64,000 nt of DNA from a phage. The notes beneath the pieces are model-generated. The model saw nothing but the letters and a program-made list of their open reading frames with translations, was not told the origin of the DNA and searched no databases. The stretch is taken from the sequence record PZ386973.1. One strand, given 5' to 3'. Within the stretch, counting starts at the first letter, position 1. Each line of letters starts with the position of its first letter. Both the position numbers and the translations under genes were made by a program. Positions 43,254 through 62,126 of this stretch are shown here, piece by piece.

Positions 43254-46026
43254 TTCTAGCACCTAGCTCTGCCATTGCTTCATCATGCATATGTTTTTCC
43301 TCATCAGTCATAAACTTATATGGAATTGGCATACACTCGATTTTACAATAGGTTCTGTACCAGTCTACAATATTTTCAGTGTTCATATCCTTACCAATAC
43401 CCATCATACCAAGATACATTCTCGCATATTTTGGGTTAGCACTCTGACCTGTTTTAAGGAAGAAATCTTTCTTCTTACCTTTCAGAGCTTCTATGAATGG
43501 TTTGATAGTGATATTTGAACACTTCTTAATATCCTCCCAGAACATCTCGTGCATCTTATGGAAGAATGCAGCTCGATCATTCGGTTTATCCTTGATATAT
43601 TGTTCGACATGCTCAACTGTTACATCTTTAATAGACTCAAGATGATAATAGCGAACAAGAAGTAGTTTAGCTTCATACGCATCTGCATGGCGTGGAGCAC
43701 AATAATCAGGAGTTGAATACAAAATAGCTTTGATTCGCTCTTCCGTATACTCTTTTCCTGCACCTTCGATAGTTCCCCAGCTTTCACTGAAAATATCAAT
43801 AGTTGCACCCTGATCAAGCAAGTAATAACGTAAAGTACTAGTATAGTTCCTAGACTCCAGCTCCCTACGACGTGTGTATAATTGCTGTGCTAACTCCAGC
43901 CAACCTTCATCAATGTTATATTGTTCAGAGCCTGCGGAGAATCCACTCGTAGATTTATCAATAAAATAATAAATGTTCTGAGCGCCACGGTCGCGCCTGA
44001 TTGCTTGAAAACGCATGTTTGGCGCTTGATTACTGGTTCTAGTAATAACGAATACGTTATCAAAATAGTTGAAGTCAACACCACTCGTTACGGATGGACT
44101 ACATAATAAGCAATCAATTTGTTGATCAATTAGCTCATTAGTTGTATAATCCAGGATACGTCGAATATCTACATCAGACGTAGAATTTGAGTGAATTTCC
44201 TTAACTAACGCACCCGTATTACGACGCAATGCCATGCCCTTCTCATTCAGTTCATCCGGTCCACAGTCAGATACTAGGATAGATTTCTCACCCATCTCTA
44301 GGGAAGTCTGAAGTGCAACCCAAATACTGGATTCATCAGGAAACTCATAAGCATGAGCTTTTGATAGCATTTTACGGTGATGATTATAAAATGCAACCGG
44401 TTTATCAAACTCAATCAAAGAACCATATGCTTCAATTGTTTCTGCACTAATATCCCCATCAGATAATATAATGATTTTTGCAGTTGCAAGAATATCCCGA
44501 AGAACCTGAATACATTCACGACGTTGTTTAACAACCGGGGCGAATAATAGGTCATTCATTACAGCATCACATTCATCGATAAAGATTGCATCAATTTGAC
44601 CAATAAAACTCTTGAACTTATGCAAAGAGTGAATAGTTGTGGACATACGGTCAATAGCACCACGCTTAAAATTAAGCATATCTACAGACTTATCATATTG
44701 TCCTGCACTAAATTTCTTAGCATTTGAAGATACCAGTGCTCGAGTATTGGTAATTGCTAAGAAATTACCATTAATAACTCCTGAATCTAACCAACGCACA
44801 ACCGCCGTAGTTTTACCTGTACCTAGACTTGCTTTTACAAAAGTCATATAACCTTCTGGTGGTACAGTATTTAATTTCAAGAAGTTATCAGTCTCTAAAG
44901 AGTTAGTTTCTAGCTTTTTAAGTGGAATACCTTTTAAAACATCCGGTATATCACGTTTAGAATTATTAACAAACGCTTTCAGAGCCTGTTTACGACCATT
45001 ATTAAAGTAGTCTTGAATATTACGACTATTATCTTTAGTTGCAATATATTCTGATAAGGCTGGACGAATTTCTTTTTCTAGCCATGCAAAATCAACACCA
45101 TCCTCTAAAGCCCTGTGATAGAGTTTAGGAATAATACGTAGATACACTCCATCCTCAGCTTCTTCTAGTTCGCTGATAGTTTCTTCTACTTTATCAGAGG
45201 CAGCTTTTTTACCCTTAATTTGGTCGAGTAAAGAGTAGAACTCTTCTTTAAACTCACCTCTAGTTGTTTCATAGTCAACCAGATTATTGGGTAAATTTAC
45301 TTTAGAACCCTTAACAAATACCAGACGTGAAGCACCCTCCGCTTTAAACGGATCTACTATACCATCAGTAAATAAAGGATCTGCAAAATAATGGAGCTGT
45401 ACGGAAGAGTAATAAGCTAAGTCGGCAATATCAAAGCCATACTTTTGTCTACTACTTTCGTTGATAGATGTAAATAAGAATTTGATTTGACCCTGAGTTA
45501 CTTTAACATTAGATTCTAGTATTAAGTGCATTCGGATACCTGGTTTTAGCCCAGCCGAAGACGATGCATGAGCGATAAACCCTGCATCAAGAGGAAACAT
45601 ATCCTCACTAATACTATTTAACATTCTAATAATATGTCGAGCCATGCCAACAAGATCAAACTTGTTACAACCACCTGTATCTACAATACCATCCACGTCC
45701 ATTGCAATTATATGGCTTGGATTAGATACATTAAAGTTGCCCTTCTTACGTCGCACATTATTTTTAGGTGCAAGACATCGACCTCGTACCGCAACGATAT
45801 GAGGGTCAGACGTTAAACGTCTCATAAGAGGAAGCATTTCTACTAGGGTTTGAGGATCAACTTCATCAATTACATCAAACTTGAAGGGCATTGAAGCTGG
45901 TTTACCTTCAGGATGCTTTGAGGAAAATCTTTTAGCAAAAAGATAATCTTCTGCTTTAACTTCTCGCCAATTGCCTGTGGCTAAATCGCGATGAAATCCT
46001 GCATGACCTTGTAGGATTGAGAACAC
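43237..46026 (-). CDS. UL9-like SF2 helicase / putative replication origin-binding protein
   Basis: Walker A ASLGTGKTTAV, Walker B IFIDECDAV; GTG start at 46026 preceded by AGGAG (track start 46104 is TTG). Confidence 0.72.
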   Translation of the reverse strand: MFSILQGHAGFHRDLATGNWREVKAEDYLFAKRFSSKHPEGKPASMPFKFDVIDEVDPQTLVEMLPLMRRLTSDPHIVAVRGRCLAPKNNVRRKKGNFNVSNPSHIIAMDVDGIVDTGGCNKFDLVGMARHIIRMLNSISEDMFPLDAGFIAHASSSAGLKPGIRMHLILESNVKVTQGQIKFLFTSINESSRQKYGFDIADLAYYSSVQLHYFADPLFTDGIVDPFKAEGASRLVFVKGSKVNLPNNLVDYETTRGEFKEEFYSLLDQIKGKKAASDKVEETISELEEAEDGVYLRIIPKLYHRALEDGVDFAWLEKEIRPALSEYIATKDNSRNIQDYFNNGRKQALKAFVNNSKRDIPDVLKGIPLKKLETNSLETDNFLKLNTVPPEGYMTFVKASLGTGKTTAVVRWLDSGVINGNFLAITNTRALVSSNAKKFSAGQYDKSVDMLNFKRGAIDRMSTTIHSLHKFKSFIGQIDAIFIDECDAVMNDLLFAPVVKQRRECIQVLRDILATAKIIILSDGDISAETIEAYGSLIEFDKPVAFYNHHRKMLSKAHAYEFPDESSIWVALQTSLEMGEKSILVSDCGPDELNEKGMALRRNTGALVKEIHSNSTSDVDIRRILDYTTNELIDQQIDCLLCSPSVTSGVDFNYFDNVFVITRTSNQAPNMRFQAIRRDRGAQNIYYFIDKSTSGFSAGSEQYNIDEGWLELAQQLYTRRRELESRNYTSTLRYYLLDQGATIDIFSESWGTIEGAGKEYTEERIKAILYSTPDYCAPRHADAYEAKLLLVRYYHLESIKDVTVEHVEQYIKDKPNDRAAFFHKMHEMFWEDIKKCSNITIKPFIEALKGKKKDFFLKTGQSANPKYARMYLGMMGIGKDMNTENIVDWYRTYCKIECMPIPYKFMTDEEKHMHDEAMAELGARNDSEE

Positions 46027-46526
46027 AACAATACTCCTGTGTTGGAAATGAAATAAGTTTTCTTTAGGACTATTCAGAAAGAATAGAACAACTGTTACTG
46101 TCAATTTCTCAACAAATTAATCGCAAATACTGAAGTGGGGTGGCAACTTCCACTTTCACGCTGCGCTGCTGCCTCATTATACCGCACAAATCCTTGAGGA
46201 TGGCCGCTAAGCCAGATTTGCTCACCTAATGCTTCATATACTAGCTCATACTAGATGCAATATAACTTACAGAATCACGTCTCGGTAGTTTTTCACTCCT
46301 CCCATCTCACTTCACAACCACCTCATACTAGGTTGCTTCGAGGCCTTACCAGGGTTCCTATGGGACGCAGATCGCTAAGTATTCTATTAACTATTTGTTT
46401 AAAAACTAACACGTAACAGTTAAAACAACCCTTAATGGGGCAGCCTAACTGTTCCGTATCGCGGATTGTAAACAAGAAAAATTAGCAAAATCAATTTTTA
46501 CTAATGTCTCTCAATTCAATATAAAT

Positions 46527-56674: not shown

Positions 56675-57204
56675 TTACAGCAATGTATGCAGTTGGGCCG
56701 AATGGGGAGTTCGGCCTCCGCGGTAAACTTCCATGGGGTTCTTTCAAAGAAGAACTAGATGCTTTCTATTCTCAACTGGACGTGTTGAATCCAGATAACA
56801 TCATTATTGGTGCGGGTACTTATTTAGCTCTTCCATACGCCGTTAGGGAACGTATGATTGGAGCCTCCGACCTATTTATTCGTGCAGATCGTCCACTGCC
56901 AGACGATATTACACATGATATTTACACCCCAATTTCTAGGATTGGGGATACATTGCCCACGTTCTTAAAAGATCAGCAAACAGTAGTTCTAGGCGGAGCT
57001 AATCTTCTTTTGGAAATGTACCAGCACGGGCACATAGAAAGTGCTTTTGTATCTACAATCTTTAGCGAACAGAAGCTAGAGGCAGATATACACCTAGATA
57101 GCACAATCCTGGATTATAATTATGAATCCACTAGATTAGTTTATGCAGTTGGCGCTAACAGTGATAACAGCCTGCGATTTGTACAGGAATTGGTTACTTA
57201 TTAA
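56671..57204 (+). CDS. frd: Dihydrofolate reductase
   Basis: N-terminal AVGPNGEFGLRGKLPW motif typical of DHFR; adjacent to thymidylate synthase. Confidence 0.75.
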   Translation: MITAMYAVGPNGEFGLRGKLPWGSFKEELDAFYSQLDVLNPDNIIIGAGTYLALPYAVRERMIGASDLFIRADRPLPDDITHDIYTPISRIGDTLPTFLKDQQTVVLGGANLLLEMYQHGHIESAFVSTIFSEQKLEADIHLDSTILDYNYESTRLVYAVGANSDNSLRFVQELVTY

Positions 57205-58043
57205 TGCAACAATACTTAAAAATTCTAACAGATGTAATTTTATTGGGTGAACCACGTAACGATCGTACGGGAACAGGCACAGTTTCAATTTTCGATTCCT
57301 ATGCTAAGTTCGACCTACGTGAAGGATTCCCTGCCGTAACCACTAAACGTCTAGCTTGGAAATCGGTAGTTGGGGAACTCTTATGGTTTTTATCTGGATC
57401 TACAAATCTTCATGATCTACGTGTATTCACATTTGGTCGTGACGAAGGACAGTGGACCATCTGGACTCCAAATTATGAAGACCAAGCTATAAGTATGGGG
57501 TATGATAAGGGTAATCTAGGACCAGTATATGGTAAACAGTGGCGTAACTTTGGTGGACGAGATCAGATTCTAGAACTTATTGAGGGACTCAAGAATAATC
57601 CTCATGGCCGCAGACATCTAGTTTCTGCATGGAATGTTGCTGAACTTGATAAAATGGCATTACCACCCTGTCACTACGGCTTCCAGTGCTATGTAAGTAA
57701 CGATGGATACCTAGATCTTAAATGGACACAACGTTCTGTAGATTGTTTCCTCGGTTTACCTTTCAATATTGCTAGTTATGCTTTATTAACGCATATAATA
57801 GCAAAACTGACAGGATTAAAACCTCGTTATCTTATCTTTAGTGGCGGTGATACTCATATCTATAATGACCACATGGAACAGGTAGAAGAACAGGTAAAAC
57901 GTAAACCTCGTCCTTTACCGACTCTAGTAATGCCAGAATTTGTAGATCTTTACGACTTACTAGAAAATAATACGGCAGCTTGGTCATTCCATTTAGAGGG
58001 GTACGATCCTCACCCAGCTCTTAAAGCTAAGATGTCTTCTTAA
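57204..58043 (+). CDS. thyA: Thymidylate synthase
   Basis: 279 aa; motifs RTGTGT, catalytic PPCH (LPPCHYGFQCYV), DxxLGxPFN-like region. Confidence 0.9.
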   Translation: MQQYLKILTDVILLGEPRNDRTGTGTVSIFDSYAKFDLREGFPAVTTKRLAWKSVVGELLWFLSGSTNLHDLRVFTFGRDEGQWTIWTPNYEDQAISMGYDKGNLGPVYGKQWRNFGGRDQILELIEGLKNNPHGRRHLVSAWNVAELDKMALPPCHYGFQCYVSNDGYLDLKWTQRSVDCFLGLPFNIASYALLTHIIAKLTGLKPRYLIFSGGDTHIYNDHMEQVEEQVKRKPRPLPTLVMPEFVDLYDLLENNTAAWSFHLEGYDPHPALKAKMSS

Positions 58044-58390: not shown

Positions 58391-58659
58391 TGTCTATTCT
58401 TTTATCTGCTTTAGAAGCAAAACAAAATACTATTGCTGTTATTAAACAGGAAGTACTTAATCTAGAGTCACTTATTGCCGTAGAGATTGATAAAGCAATC
58501 AAAGAAAAAGAATTTAACTGCCATATTCAGGGATTAACTGAATATTCAGAAAACGCCAGAAACAGCGTTATGCAACGACTCACTAAACTAGGCTATGTCG
58601 TAGAAGCTAAGTATGAGCAGCGTGAAGGTTTTTGGCTTGAAATTGACTGGAGCAAATAA
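58390..58659 (+). CDS. Hypothetical protein
   Basis: 89-aa ORF, start overlapping previous stop. Confidence 0.5.
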   Translation: MSILLSALEAKQNTIAVIKQEVLNLESLIAVEIDKAIKEKEFNCHIQGLTEYSENARNSVMQRLTKLGYVVEAKYEQREGFWLEIDWSK

Positions 58660-59135
58660 TGTCGGTTTTCCACATTTACACAGATGGTGCTTGTAAGTCT
58701 AACCCAGGTCCAGGTGCTTGGGGTTTTATTGTCTATGATGATAACGACGATCGTTTAGGTTCTAAATCGGGTTATAGTCCTAAAACTACAAATAATGAGA
58801 TGGAACTCACAGCTATTGTAGAAGCTCTACGTTGGTCTGTTAAAAAAGATAATAGACCAATTGCTATCTATACTGACTCTGCTTATTGCAAAAATGGCAT
58901 GGAAAGTTGGATGTTTTCTTGGCAAAGGAAAGGCTGGAAGAAAGCAGATGGTGAAGTTCCTCTTAATCTAGAACTTTGGCAGGAAGCATTTAGATTAACA
59001 CAGCAGTATATTAACTTTCATAATACTAACCCTACCTTTATTAAGGTTAAAGGACATTCTGGTATTAGTGGTAATGAAGCTGTAGATGCCTTATGTAATA
59101 CAGTTATTACTGAAGCTGAAATGGCTGAGATGTAA
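58659..59135 (+). CDS. rnh: Ribonuclease H (RNase HI-like)
   Basis: HIYTDGACKSNPGPGAWG, TNNEMELTAIVEAL, IYTDSAY, GHSG..NE.VDALC catalytic DEDD pattern. Confidence 0.85.
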   Translation: MSVFHIYTDGACKSNPGPGAWGFIVYDDNDDRLGSKSGYSPKTTNNEMELTAIVEALRWSVKKDNRPIAIYTDSAYCKNGMESWMFSWQRKGWKKADGEVPLNLELWQEAFRLTQQYINFHNTNPTFIKVKGHSGISGNEAVDALCNTVITEAEMAEM

Positions 59136-59155
59136 TAAATAAATTAAAAATTCTC

Positions 59156-59184
59156 TTGCTTAAAGCTCTCTAATTTAGTATAAT
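59156..59184 (+). promoter_or_regulatory. T5-type early promoter
   Basis: TTGCTT - 17 bp - TATAAT upstream of 59212..59496 and NADAR gene. Confidence 0.6.
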
Positions 59185-59211
59185 ATTCGTATTGAAAGTG
59201 AGGAGGGCTTT

Positions 59212-59496
59212 ATGCGGATTTATAACTCAAATTCATTAGGATTTAAACCATTGAGAAAACGTGCACAATCACCTCGTCAAATAAGAAAGGCTAATATTGG
59301 TGAGCCAGAAACACGTCTTCCACCTCCTCCAGAACAACGTTTAGTTTATCTGGACGAAGAATTAGCTGAACGCGAAAGAAAAGCTCAAGAAGAGATTGAG
59401 CGTAAGAAAATGTGTACTGCTCCAGCCTACTCCAAGGGGGCTTATCAGTATATCTATACAGCCGAGGAGGCTAAAGATGCGGGGCGTAAAAAATGA
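59212..59496 (+). CDS. Hypothetical protein
   Basis: 94-aa ORF with GAGGAGG RBS and promoter 59156..59184. Confidence 0.5.
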   Translation: MRIYNSNSLGFKPLRKRAQSPRQIRKANIGEPETRLPPPPEQRLVYLDEELAERERKAQEEIERKKMCTAPAYSKGAYQYIYTAEEAKDAGRKK

Positions 59497-59942
59497 AGAT
59501 TACTGAATTTAAAGGTACTTATAGTTTCTTATCTAACTTTTATTTATCACCAATTACTTTCGAATATCTAAATGAGATATGGCATGCTGATACTGTAGAA
59601 CATGCCTTTCAGGCTATGAAATCCGACCAAAAAGATGATGTAGCTCATGTACTGCGCTCCCTAAGTGCAGGAGTTGCCAAACGTAGGGGACGTAAATTAA
59701 CTCTGCGCTCTGACTGGGATAAGGTAAAAGATGATGTAATGCTAGAGCTTTTACGGTTAAAGTTTGCAATCCCTGATTTGAGAGACAAACTGTTAGCAAC
59801 AAAAAATGCAACTTTGGTCGAAGGAAATACCTGGGGAGATACATATTGGGGTGTTTGCCGAGGCATCGGGGATAATACTTTAGGAGTTCTTTTGATGCAG
59901 GTAAGGTCTGAAATTAAAAGAAGCTTACAGTTAATAAATTAA
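59493..59942 (+). CDS. NADAR / YbiA-like (DUF1768) domain protein
   Basis: 149 aa; FLSNFY N-terminal motif and W..VKDDVM...LRxKF...LLATxNAxLVE...DxYWG...GxNxLGxLLMxxR pattern similar to E. coli YbiA as recalled. Confidence 0.72.
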   Translation: MKITEFKGTYSFLSNFYLSPITFEYLNEIWHADTVEHAFQAMKSDQKDDVAHVLRSLSAGVAKRRGRKLTLRSDWDKVKDDVMLELLRLKFAIPDLRDKLLATKNATLVEGNTWGDTYWGVCRGIGDNTLGVLLMQVRSEIKRSLQLIN

Positions 59943-59950
59943 AAATTCAT

Positions 59951-59979
59951 TTGCTAAACGCTTCAAATTCTCGTATAAT
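59951..59979 (+). promoter_or_regulatory. T5-type early promoter
   Basis: TTGCTA - 17 bp - TATAAT then ATACTTCATAAATTGATAAAC. Confidence 0.6.
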
Positions 59980-60017
59980 ATACTTCATAAATTGATAAAC
60001 AAAAAGGAAAATAAATA

Positions 60018-60533
60018 ATGGCTAAGCAGAAAAACGCAAAAACTCAAGCAGCTCCGGCAGTTAAAACTTTCCCTCAGACTGAGGCTAATCGCAAAGCTCG
60101 TCTGGAACGCCACCTGCGCAAGCATCCTACCGATGCTCAGGCTGCGCAAGCACTGAATAACCCGGCTCCGATTCGCCAGAAACCTAAGGCTAAGAATACT
60201 GCTCGTTCTGTAGCCCGCCTTGTAACCTATGTGCAGGGTTATGGTCACAAATCTGTTCCAGTAACACTGAGTTTCAATGCTGGGGCTGAATTGTTCCCTC
60301 GTAATGGCATGGCTATGAAAGACTATGAGAAGGCAGTTAACCAGAAGCGTAAACCAACGGCAGATGTACTTCGTGACACTCGTGGCCAGTTTGGTTCTGT
60401 TAAACCAAATATTTTTGGCGTAGAATATAGCAAAGATAACGTTCGTGCTCTGTGCTACGGTGTAGGAATTAAGTTCACCGGCGATTCTGCTCGTAAATCT
60501 GCTAAACCAGCTCGCAAGCGTAAAGCGAAGTAA
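60018..60533 (+). CDS. Hypothetical basic protein
   Basis: 171 aa, Lys/Arg-rich termini; promoter 59951..59979; host-like codon bias. Confidence 0.55.
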   Translation: MAKQKNAKTQAAPAVKTFPQTEANRKARLERHLRKHPTDAQAAQALNNPAPIRQKPKAKNTARSVARLVTYVQGYGHKSVPVTLSFNAGAELFPRNGMAMKDYEKAVNQKRKPTADVLRDTRGQFGSVKPNIFGVEYSKDNVRALCYGVGIKFTGDSARKSAKPARKRKAK

Positions 60534-60596: not shown

Positions 60597-60812
60597 ATGT
60601 TCTCTAAGAAACCACGTTCCGTTACTGAAATCGTTGCTTCCTTTACCACTATCACTGATGAGCTTCAAGCTCGTATTGAGGCTGATCAAAAAATTGCTGC
60701 GGATATTCAGAAACAGCAGGAAGAACTCGCTTTAAAGTTGGCTGAAACCAACAAGAGTGAAAAATCTGCCCAAACTATTATGGAAAATATCCTTAAACTG
60801 CTGGGCAAGTAA
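60597..60812 (+). CDS. Hypothetical protein (predicted coiled coil)
   Basis: 71-aa ORF flanked by hairpins. Confidence 0.5.
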   Translation: MFSKKPRSVTEIVASFTTITDELQARIEADQKIAADIQKQQEELALKLAETNKSEKSAQTIMENILKLLGK

Positions 60813-60820
60813 TTTAAATC

Positions 60821-60846
60821 AGGGGGCGAAAGCCCCTCTTATTTGG
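60821..60846 (+). terminator. Hairpin with GAAA tetraloop and T-rich tail
   Basis: GGGGC-GAAA-GCCCC followed by TCTTATTT. Confidence 0.5.
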
Positions 60847-61118: not shown

Positions 61119-61820
61119 ATGAAAGTAAAACCATTTGGTATGCTAGATATTGAATCTCTAGGAACCCCTGGAGATTGTGGTACTACCCATATCGCAATGC
61201 CTTCATTCGCTTTTGTGGCTATGCATGGAATTGATAAAGACCCTGATCTAGTATTTGTTACTTTAGATGTACAAGATCAACTTAATTCTGGTGCCAAAGT
61301 TACAGCATCTACTCTAGCATTCTGGATGGATCAGGCTAAACATAGCCCGTCTGCTATTCACATTATGGAAGCTATGAAGGAACGTAATCCAAAACTGATT
61401 GCCTTCCAAAATGGTAAACATCATTGCACTAATAAATTAGGCTCAAACTATGCTGCCTTCTCTATGGCTCAAAATATTATGGAGTTGGCTCTAGGCGAAA
61501 ATGCTTTGTATTATGGCAATGGCCCAGAGTTTGATATGACTATCTACTCTGCAAACACGTTCCATGCTGGAACCAATGAAGAGGTAGTTCCGTGGAAATT
61601 CTGGAATTTGGGTAATGTTCGATCTCTTCGTAATCTCTGGATGCAAGCTGGATACAGTTATAAAGCTCTAGAGACAGAAGGTATTAGCTGGGCAATAGCT
61701 AAAATGGAGAAGATGGACACTATTCGTTATGGGATCTATCCGGTTAAGCATGATCCTGCATTTGATGCCTTAGTTGAAAGCTATTGTGTTGCAGCTATGA
61801 TCGAAAAAATGAAAATTTGA
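61119..61820 (+). CDS. DEDDh-type 3'-5' exonuclease (DnaQ-like)
   Basis: Exo I motif GMLDIESLG, Exo III-like YPVKHDPAFDAL (H-x4-D). Confidence 0.62.
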   Translation: MKVKPFGMLDIESLGTPGDCGTTHIAMPSFAFVAMHGIDKDPDLVFVTLDVQDQLNSGAKVTASTLAFWMDQAKHSPSAIHIMEAMKERNPKLIAFQNGKHHCTNKLGSNYAAFSMAQNIMELALGENALYYGNGPEFDMTIYSANTFHAGTNEEVVPWKFWNLGNVRSLRNLWMQAGYSYKALETEGISWAIAKMEKMDTIRYGIYPVKHDPAFDALVESYCVAAMIEKMKI

Positions 61821-61821
61821 T

Positions 61822-61850
61822 TTGCCTCCGGCTCCAAAATTCTGTATAAT
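61822..61850 (+). promoter_or_regulatory. T5-type early promoter
   Basis: TTGCCT - 17 bp - TATAAT then ATATTCATAAATTTGAGAAAAC. Confidence 0.6.
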
Positions 61851-61890
61851 ATATTCATAAATTTGAGAAAACAATAAAAGGAAAACAAAT

Positions 61891-62073
61891 ATGCCAGTAT
61901 CTAAAAATGTTCGTAAAAATGGTAAGAAAGCTACTCGTAATCTGGGTATCCGTCGTATGGCTGAACGTCAATCAGGTGTCCAGAAAATCTTTGATCTGCT
62001 AAATCGTGCTAATCCTAAAATTGATAACAGTAACGATACTGTTCTACGCACTCTGCTGGCAATTGGTCTGTAA
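61891..62073 (+). CDS. Hypothetical small basic protein
   Basis: 60-aa ORF with own promoter 61822..61850 and AAAGGA RBS. Confidence 0.45.
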   Translation: MPVSKNVRKNGKKATRNLGIRRMAERQSGVQKIFDLLNRANPKIDNSNDTVLRTLLAIGL

Positions 62074-62126
62074 TAGACCAAATTTAAACAAATTCAAATC
62101 TCAAACCTCATATAAGGAAGCAAATA

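Follow-up and report, generated by a model that had tools for sequence, protein, structure and literature searches.

The NADAR gene described here lies in a 64,000-nucleotide stretch of phage DNA (record PZ386973.1), referred to as the window, which is assigned by its sequence to a T5-like phage (Demerecviridae, Markadamsvirinae). The question raised by the locus is which substrate such an enzyme would serve, as members of the superfamily have been linked both to riboflavin intermediates and to ADP-ribosylated nucleic acids. Schuller et al. (2023) reported that NADARs hydrolyze guanine-N2-linked ADP-ribose and that DarG1, whose gene adjoins that of the toxin DarT1, is a NADAR (PMC11543638). 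Cihlova et al. (2024) found in vitro activity for E. coli YbiA and T4 gp30.3 but no protection of cells from DarT1 (PMC11125620). Johannesman et al. (Nat Commun 2025) named gp30.3 AdfN and described a protein from phage Bas32 as AdfN(Bas32) (PMC11825919). The original prediction for the window had proposed an anti-DarT role and had considered it more plausible than riboflavin salvage.

Family assignment, fold, and active site

The NADAR ORF (59493..59942, plus strand) runs from an ATG at 59493 to a TAA at 59940..59942 and encodes 149 amino acids, just as originally described. Its frame opens at 59490, one codon 5′ of the ATG, which makes ATG 59493 the sole start that preserves the NADAR domain, whose first residue is residue 9. 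In a profile search, the protein matched Pfam NADAR (PF08719, formerly DUF1768) with 80.1 bits and an E value of 2.9e-22 against a gathering score of 35.1 bits, and the match spans profile positions 9-163 of 163. PHROG 1017 was matched with an E value of 1.3e-44, and E. coli YbiA in the PDB with one of 9.7e-16. Both motifs from which the family had been predicted are located in the protein: FLSNFY as F12-L-S-N-F-Y17, and the C-terminal W..VKDDVM...YWG pattern as W75-DK-V78-K-D-D-V-M83 together with Y118-W-G120. The product is securely a member of the NADAR superfamily, and the predicted NADAR/DUF1768/YbiA-like assignment is upheld by profile, fold, and active-site residues alike. A second NADAR ORF was not found in the window with the family HMM or with phmmer searches that used YbiA, the NADAR of Phytophthora nicotianae (PnNADAR), and T4 gp30.3 as queries. 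PADLOC gave only a weak match, to the candidate-system protein PDC-M42C (E 1.3e-6), and the NCBIfam model "NADAR family anti-phage protein" (DS32_2) was matched with 47 bits, far short of its threshold of 240; neither match is informative about the window gene. The existence of the latter model indicates that NADARs also serve on the defence side.

A 76-homologue alignment, gathered by a search of 5.8 billion proteins, was fed to AlphaFold (AF2) and gave a confident model (mean pLDDT 97.8, pTM 0.91). In the model, the protein has a compact YbiA-like core, α-helical with small flanking β-sheets and without an N-terminal extension. In a Foldseek search of the PDB, the model matched E. coli YbiA (2B3W; TM 0.82, 39% identity) and PnNADAR in complex with ADP-ribose (8BAU; TM 0.79), on both of which it superposes, and beyond these two entries no match had an E value <0.8.

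The window protein, YbiA, PnNADAR, and T4 gp30.3 were aligned to the family profile with hmmalign, and PnNADAR residues are numbered as in its paper, i.e., as the PDB chain index minus 2. E36 of the window protein corresponds to PnNADAR E43 and T4 AdfN E36, and K43 to PnNADAR K50 and T4 AdfN K43, so that these two residues stand at equal positions in the window and T4 proteins. K63 corresponds to PnNADAR K75 and to K115 of DarG1 from E. coli C7, R67 to R79, W75 to W89, E110 to E125, D116 to D130, and W119 to W133 of PnNADAR. Across the 76 homologues, E36, K43, K63, E110, D116, and W119 do not vary, and conservation of W75 reaches at least 90%; the predicted catalytic residues, E36, K43, and E110, are thus all retained. 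The adenine-stacking Y84 of PnNADAR is replaced by R72, and the position of K63 is occupied by Ala in YbiA and by Gln in T4 gp30.3. In the T4 study, mutations of E36 and K43 of T4 AdfN reduced rescue, and K115 of E. coli C7 DarG1 was required in vivo against DarT1 while being dispensable for catalysis in vitro (PMC11543638).

Gene neighborhood and accessory insertion

The features of the locus and its alignment with T5 are collected in Table 1.

Table 1. Features around the NADAR gene of the window and correspondence of the locus with phage T5
Feature	Position in window	Strand	Match or basis
Thymidylate synthase gene	57204..58043		
Small gene, 98 aa	58094..58390	+	PHROG 17630
Small gene, 89 aa	58390..58659	+	PHROG 13270
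RNase H gene (rnh)	58659..59135		
Putative sigma-70 promoter, TTGCTT-17-TATAAT	59156..59184	+	Sequence reading
94-aa gene, T5.090 orthologue	59212..59496	+	PHROG 4593, E 1.8e-54
NADAR gene, predicted adfN-type	59493..59942	+	ORF, Pfam, orthology
Promoter TTGCTA-17-TATAAT, P-H207 equivalent	59951..59979	+	Promoter scan
DUF7022 gene	60018..60533		
71-aa gene	60597..60812		PHROG 2380; between DUF7022 gene and T5.088 orthologue
Terminator-like hairpin	60822..60837		After 71-aa gene
233-aa gene	61119..61820		Pfam Rv2179c-like 3'-5' exoribonuclease domain; PHROG 255 "exonuclease"
Segment collinear with T5	59130..59450		T5 46417..46097, 92.5% identity; pairwise alignment
Replacement, not collinear	59451..59940 (490 nt)		T5 46096..46051 (46 nt); pairwise alignment
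Segment collinear with T5	59941..60040		T5 46050..45951, 99% identity; pairwise alignment

The promoter that had been proposed upstream of the 94-aa gene reads TTGCTT, 17 nt, TATAAT, and its hexamers are identical in T5 and Bas32. The T5 RefSeq record has an annotated promoter at the corresponding site (46337..46411). TTGCTT also serves as the -35 element in P-N25, a classic T5 promoter; it fits only three of the six positions of TTGACA, which is why a generic scan skipped the site. This is the nearest upstream promoter-like site of a two-gene unit formed by the 94-aa gene and the NADAR gene, and it would be expected to drive both. The TGA stop codon of the 94-aa gene overlaps the NADAR start in an ATGA (59493..59496), and translation of the NADAR gene is for this reason probably coupled to that of the 94-aa gene. 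The second promoter begins 8 nt past the NADAR stop codon, drives the DUF7022 gene, and is 99% identical to "promoter P-H 207" of T5.

The 94-aa gene was considered as a dedicated partner of the NADAR and rejected, as its T5.090 orthologue is present in T5, Bas26, and VEc33, which are without a NADAR gene, and as it has the NADAR gene on its opposite side in phage UTK0009. No neighboring gene matched an ADP-ribosyltransferase (ART) or DarT toxin in Pfam, NCBIfam, or PADLOC. With RNase H, the T5.090-like gene, DUF7022, and small ORFs as its neighbors, the NADAR is an orphan.

The surrounding region is ~98% identical at the nucleotide level to T5-like phages that infect Salmonella and E. coli, among them slur09, SE11, Kenya-K16, and vB_EcoD-Elw. 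T5 itself has the order RNase H (T5.091), promoter, T5.090, promoter P-H207, and T5.089, without a NADAR gene. The 490-nt segment that stands in place of 46 nt of T5 consists of the 3′ end of the 94-aa gene and the NADAR ORF. Its left edge falls within the 3′-terminal ~15 codons of the T5.090 orthologue, hence the altered C-terminus of the 94-aa protein, which diverges from T5.090 over these codons. On the right, the segment ends with the NADAR stop codon, and the -35 element of the P-H207 equivalent follows after 8 nt. The T5-like arrangement without the gene recurs in Bas26 and VEc33; of about 440 related phage records, about 95 carry the NADAR gene. It is an accessory gene, inserted between the T5.090 orthologue and the promoter of the P-H207 type.

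Other parts of the neighborhood vary as well. The 98-aa and 89-aa genes have no match in Pfam, NCBIfam, or PADLOC; between thymidylate synthase and RNase H, no gene is annotated in T5, and the number of annotated genes at this spot is zero in Bas32, one in Bas33 and VEc33, and two in Bas26 and UTK0009. The 71-aa gene is missing from T5; Bas32, Bas26, and UTK0009 have it, and its label there, "tail tape measure protein", looks mis-annotated. In T5 (T5.087) and VEc33, the orthologue of the 233-aa gene is called "exonuclease", but UTK0009 has it as "metallopeptidase" and the BASEL phages (Bas32, Bas33, Bas26) as "putative metallopeptidase".

Orthology to AdfN(Bas32) and comparison with other NADARs

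A tblastn search found a protein with 97.3% identity to the window protein in Escherichia phage IrisVonRoten, whose locus tags (bas32_00xx) identify it as Bas32; the matching gene is bas32_0066 (YP_013435443.1). The copy in phage HildyBeyeler (Bas33) is bas33_0070 (QXV80081.1). The window and Bas32 proteins are identical at 145 of 149 residues and differ by T9A, S58N, K104E, and V109I, whereas 147 of 149 residues are shared with the Bas33 protein (S58N and V109I). All four substitutions fall on variable columns of the 76-sequence alignment, and none on an invariant or nearly invariant one. The window, Bas32, and Bas33 have the gene order rnh, 94-aa gene, NADAR, and DUF7022 in common; the ATGA overlap, the flanking promoters, and the NADAR length of 149 aa are the same. 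The phage background differs: nucleotide identity to Bas33 is 95.4% over 1.9 kb, compared with ~98% to slur09, SE11, Kenya-K16, and vB_EcoD-Elw. A six-frame search of the complete Bas32 genome, for which the family HMM, YbiA, PnNADAR, and T4 gp30.3 served as queries, found a single NADAR ORF (61638..62087). This ORF is bas32_0066, and with only one candidate in the genome bas32_0066 must be AdfN(Bas32). The text of PMC11825919 calls the Bas32 and Bas33 NADARs identical; the GenBank/RefSeq records of the two genes (L001:3001-3447 and L003:1335-1781) differ at A9T and E104K.

The published tests of AdfN(Bas32) relied on ectopic expression (PMC11825919). AdfN(Bas32) counteracted DarT1 toxicity in E. 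coli in a phage-free setting and brought RB69, T5, and Bas25 back to full titre on DarTG1, while it had no effect for T5 on DarTG2, which modifies thymidine. Neither a Bas32 deletion mutant nor an assay that explicitly examines AdfN(Bas32) in vitro was found in the available text of that paper, although its Discussion credits both non-T4 NADARs with glycohydrolase activity. No further literature was found on the T5-like protein under the name "AdfN".

By sequence comparison, the window gene is of the adfN type and orthologous to the gene of a published anti-DarTG1 enzyme. Its 2 to 4 non-conserved differences from AdfN(Bas32), together with the shared locus, support the anti-DarT reading for the window gene, and the originally proposed role thus agrees with the published function of AdfN(Bas32). 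It can be narrowed to the guanine-modifying DarT1 specifically, since AdfN(Bas32) is of no help on DarTG2. The window allele would be expected to act as AdfN(Bas32) does and to be expressed early.

Three further NADAR lineages were compared with the window protein. AdfN(T4), the gp30.3 protein of the "phage NADAR" family, belongs to the same superfamily, has the same proposed chemistry, and is an orphan anti-DarTG1 enzyme too. However, there is no detectable pairwise similarity between gp30.3 and the window protein (BLASTP E 1.2), and gp30.3 aligns to the family profile over its N-terminal third only. T4-type enzymes carry a His at the position of PnNADAR E125 (PMC11543638), where the window protein has a Glu (E110), and on both grounds it falls outside the T4-type family. 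The two also differ functionally (PMC11825919): AdfN(T4) neutralized DarT1 only with T-even infection, and AdfN(Bas32) did so without it.

The DarG1 proteins (BC4488-type; G. lovleyi, E. coli C7) remove ADP-ribose from guanine N2 with a Glu/Lys pair and have in K115 the equivalent of K63. They differ from the bare core of the window protein by an N-terminal β-β-α extension with a basic surface, which is the proposed ssDNA-binding element, and by an Asp (D171) instead of Glu as the second acidic residue (PMC11543638). The window protein, which is without the extension and has E110, is accordingly not of the DarG1 type, and it is a phage orphan whereas DarG1 is encoded next to DarT1. YbiA (2B3W) is the closest solved structure and shares with the window protein both the compact core without extension and the Glu at the E110 position. 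It differs by its Ala at the K63 position and by its failure to protect cells from DarT1 (PMC11125620).

Proposed mechanism and alternative readings

The favored reading, to which a probability of roughly 0.9 is given, is that the window gene encodes an orphan, antitoxin-like NADAR of the AdfN type by which a T5-like lytic phage would strip ADP-ribose from guanine and counter DarTG1 but not DarTG2. The gene would be transcribed together with the 94-aa gene from the early sigma-70 promoter, and its translation would probably be coupled. Infection of a DarTG1 host would free DarT1, which would place ADP-ribose on N2 of guanines in the phage DNA and block replication. The phage NADAR is predicted to grip the ADP-ribose via K43, K63, R67, W75, D116, and W119, upon which E36 and E110 would cut the N-glycosidic bond between ribose and guanine. 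In this way the DNA would be restored and replication could resume. Thymidine-linked ADP-ribose would not be processed, and DarTG2 would not be countered. T5 speaks in favor of this proposal, as it is without the NADAR gene at an otherwise collinear locus and is listed as DarTG1-sensitive in the text of PMC11825919. Counted against it are the missing basic DarG1-type N-terminal extension and the exchange of PnNADAR Y84 for R72.

A further point against it is that NADARs are promiscuous in vitro: representatives of all families remove guanine-linked ADP-ribose (G-ADPr) from DNA and RNA, and the NADAR and YbiA types also remove cytidine-linked ADP-ribose (C-ADPr; PMC12945103). In nature, DarT1 may thus be one target among others, or not the main one. 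The window protein could instead be a broader eraser of nucleic-acid ADP-ribosylation that acts on the products of other G/C-modifying ARTs (pierisin/ScARP-like, YarT-like, or defence systems yet to be discovered) or on RNA, with DarT1 as one target among several. A YbiA-type NADAR serves as the antitoxin of the unrelated ART YarT (PMC11125620), E110 is the Glu of the C-ADPr-acting NADAR and YbiA types, where DarG1 has Asp and T4-type enzymes have His, and the AdfN authors themselves raise the possibility (PMC11825919). However, DarT1 is the sole target demonstrated by phenotype for the AdfN(Bas32) clade, and the wider substrate range is regarded as unlikely, if still worth keeping in view. 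It extends rather than contradicts the anti-DarT1 explanation.

A riboflavin role, i.e., that of a housekeeping YbiA-type N-glycosidase of reactive riboflavin-pathway intermediates, underlies database names like "GTP cyclohydrolase II" or "ribA/ribD-fused protein". The best solved-structure match to YbiA and the compact core would suit it. So would a weak match to NCBIfam TIGR02464, the equivalog domain of the riboflavin-intermediate N-glycosidase, but the 68.1 bits reached lie below the cut-off of 73.7, which places the window protein outside this equivalog and speaks against the riboflavin role, held less plausible from the outset. The gene is moreover accessory and patchy, no riboflavin-pathway gene was seen near it, its neighbors being genes of nucleotide and DNA metabolism and small ORFs, and its orthologue neutralizes DarT1 in vivo (PMC11825919), which E. 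coli YbiA does not (PMC11125620). The riboflavin role is thus considered very improbable. An equally slight chance is given to an enzyme of free ADP-ribose/NAD+ metabolism that would secure the phage NAD+ supply under NAD-depleting defences without any DNA repair. T5-like phages do carry NAD-dependent ligase and Sir2-like genes, and PnNADAR binds free ADP-ribose in its crystal (PMC11543638). The NADAR gene is not next to either gene, though; a role in NAD+ salvage is not known for any NADAR, and the phenotype of the orthologue is specific to DarTG1 with none for DarTG2 (PMC11825919).

For the anti-DarT1 enzyme favored here, the alignment and the published phenotypes suggest a tentative idea about potency. 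The lineage may owe its phage-independent activity against DarT1 to the combination of a bare YbiA-like core with the DarG1-type K63, and the Glu-type site could at the same time make it a general eraser whose reach extends beyond DarTG1. The latter suggestion draws on the window protein keeping the Glu-type site of those NADARs that cleave cytidine-ADP-ribose and RNA-linked ADP-ribose. The combined idea is rather unlikely.

The anti-DarT assignment is a correct re-derivation: the mechanism and the counter-defence role had been published for an orthologue with 2 to 4 residue differences, and no new question is opened by it. In annotation, the window gene could be named adfN (anti-DarT1 NADAR), which would replace the legacy labels of its relatives. 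Among close relatives these are "swarming motility protein YbiA", "GTP cyclohydrolase II", "DUF1768", and "hypothetical protein", and none is called adfN or NADAR glycohydrolase. The window phage, unlike T5, is predicted to plaque on DarTG1 hosts, which would be useful when T5-like phages are selected for applications against Salmonella or E. coli.

Diverged NADAR alleles occur in the Salmonella phage UTK0009 (L008:2501-2950) and in phage Eos (L007:3486-3995), with 59% and 54% identity, respectively. In both, the NADAR gene directly follows RNase H, and in UTK0009 it precedes the T5.090-like gene, after which it lies in the window. It would seem that a NADAR gene was placed independently more than once within a single 1-kb neighborhood of T5-like phages, and the independent placement of diverged alleles beside rnh would fit strong and varied selection of the kind implied by a general eraser. 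The nearest cellular relatives (loci L009-L088) have 45-55% identity and are scattered over numerous bacterial phyla, with one Pacearchaeota MAG among them; single chromosomes of Bryobacterales and Azotimanducaceae MAGs hold at least four NADAR copies. The analysis of their neighbors is noisy in high-GC MAGs owing to shadow ORFs, and only three neighbor families could be named: some copies adjoin DUF3560, LPD11, or YodL genes. DUF3560, LPD11, and YodL are typical cargo of conjugative elements, which hints at a counter-defence role of cellular NADARs on other mobile elements too.
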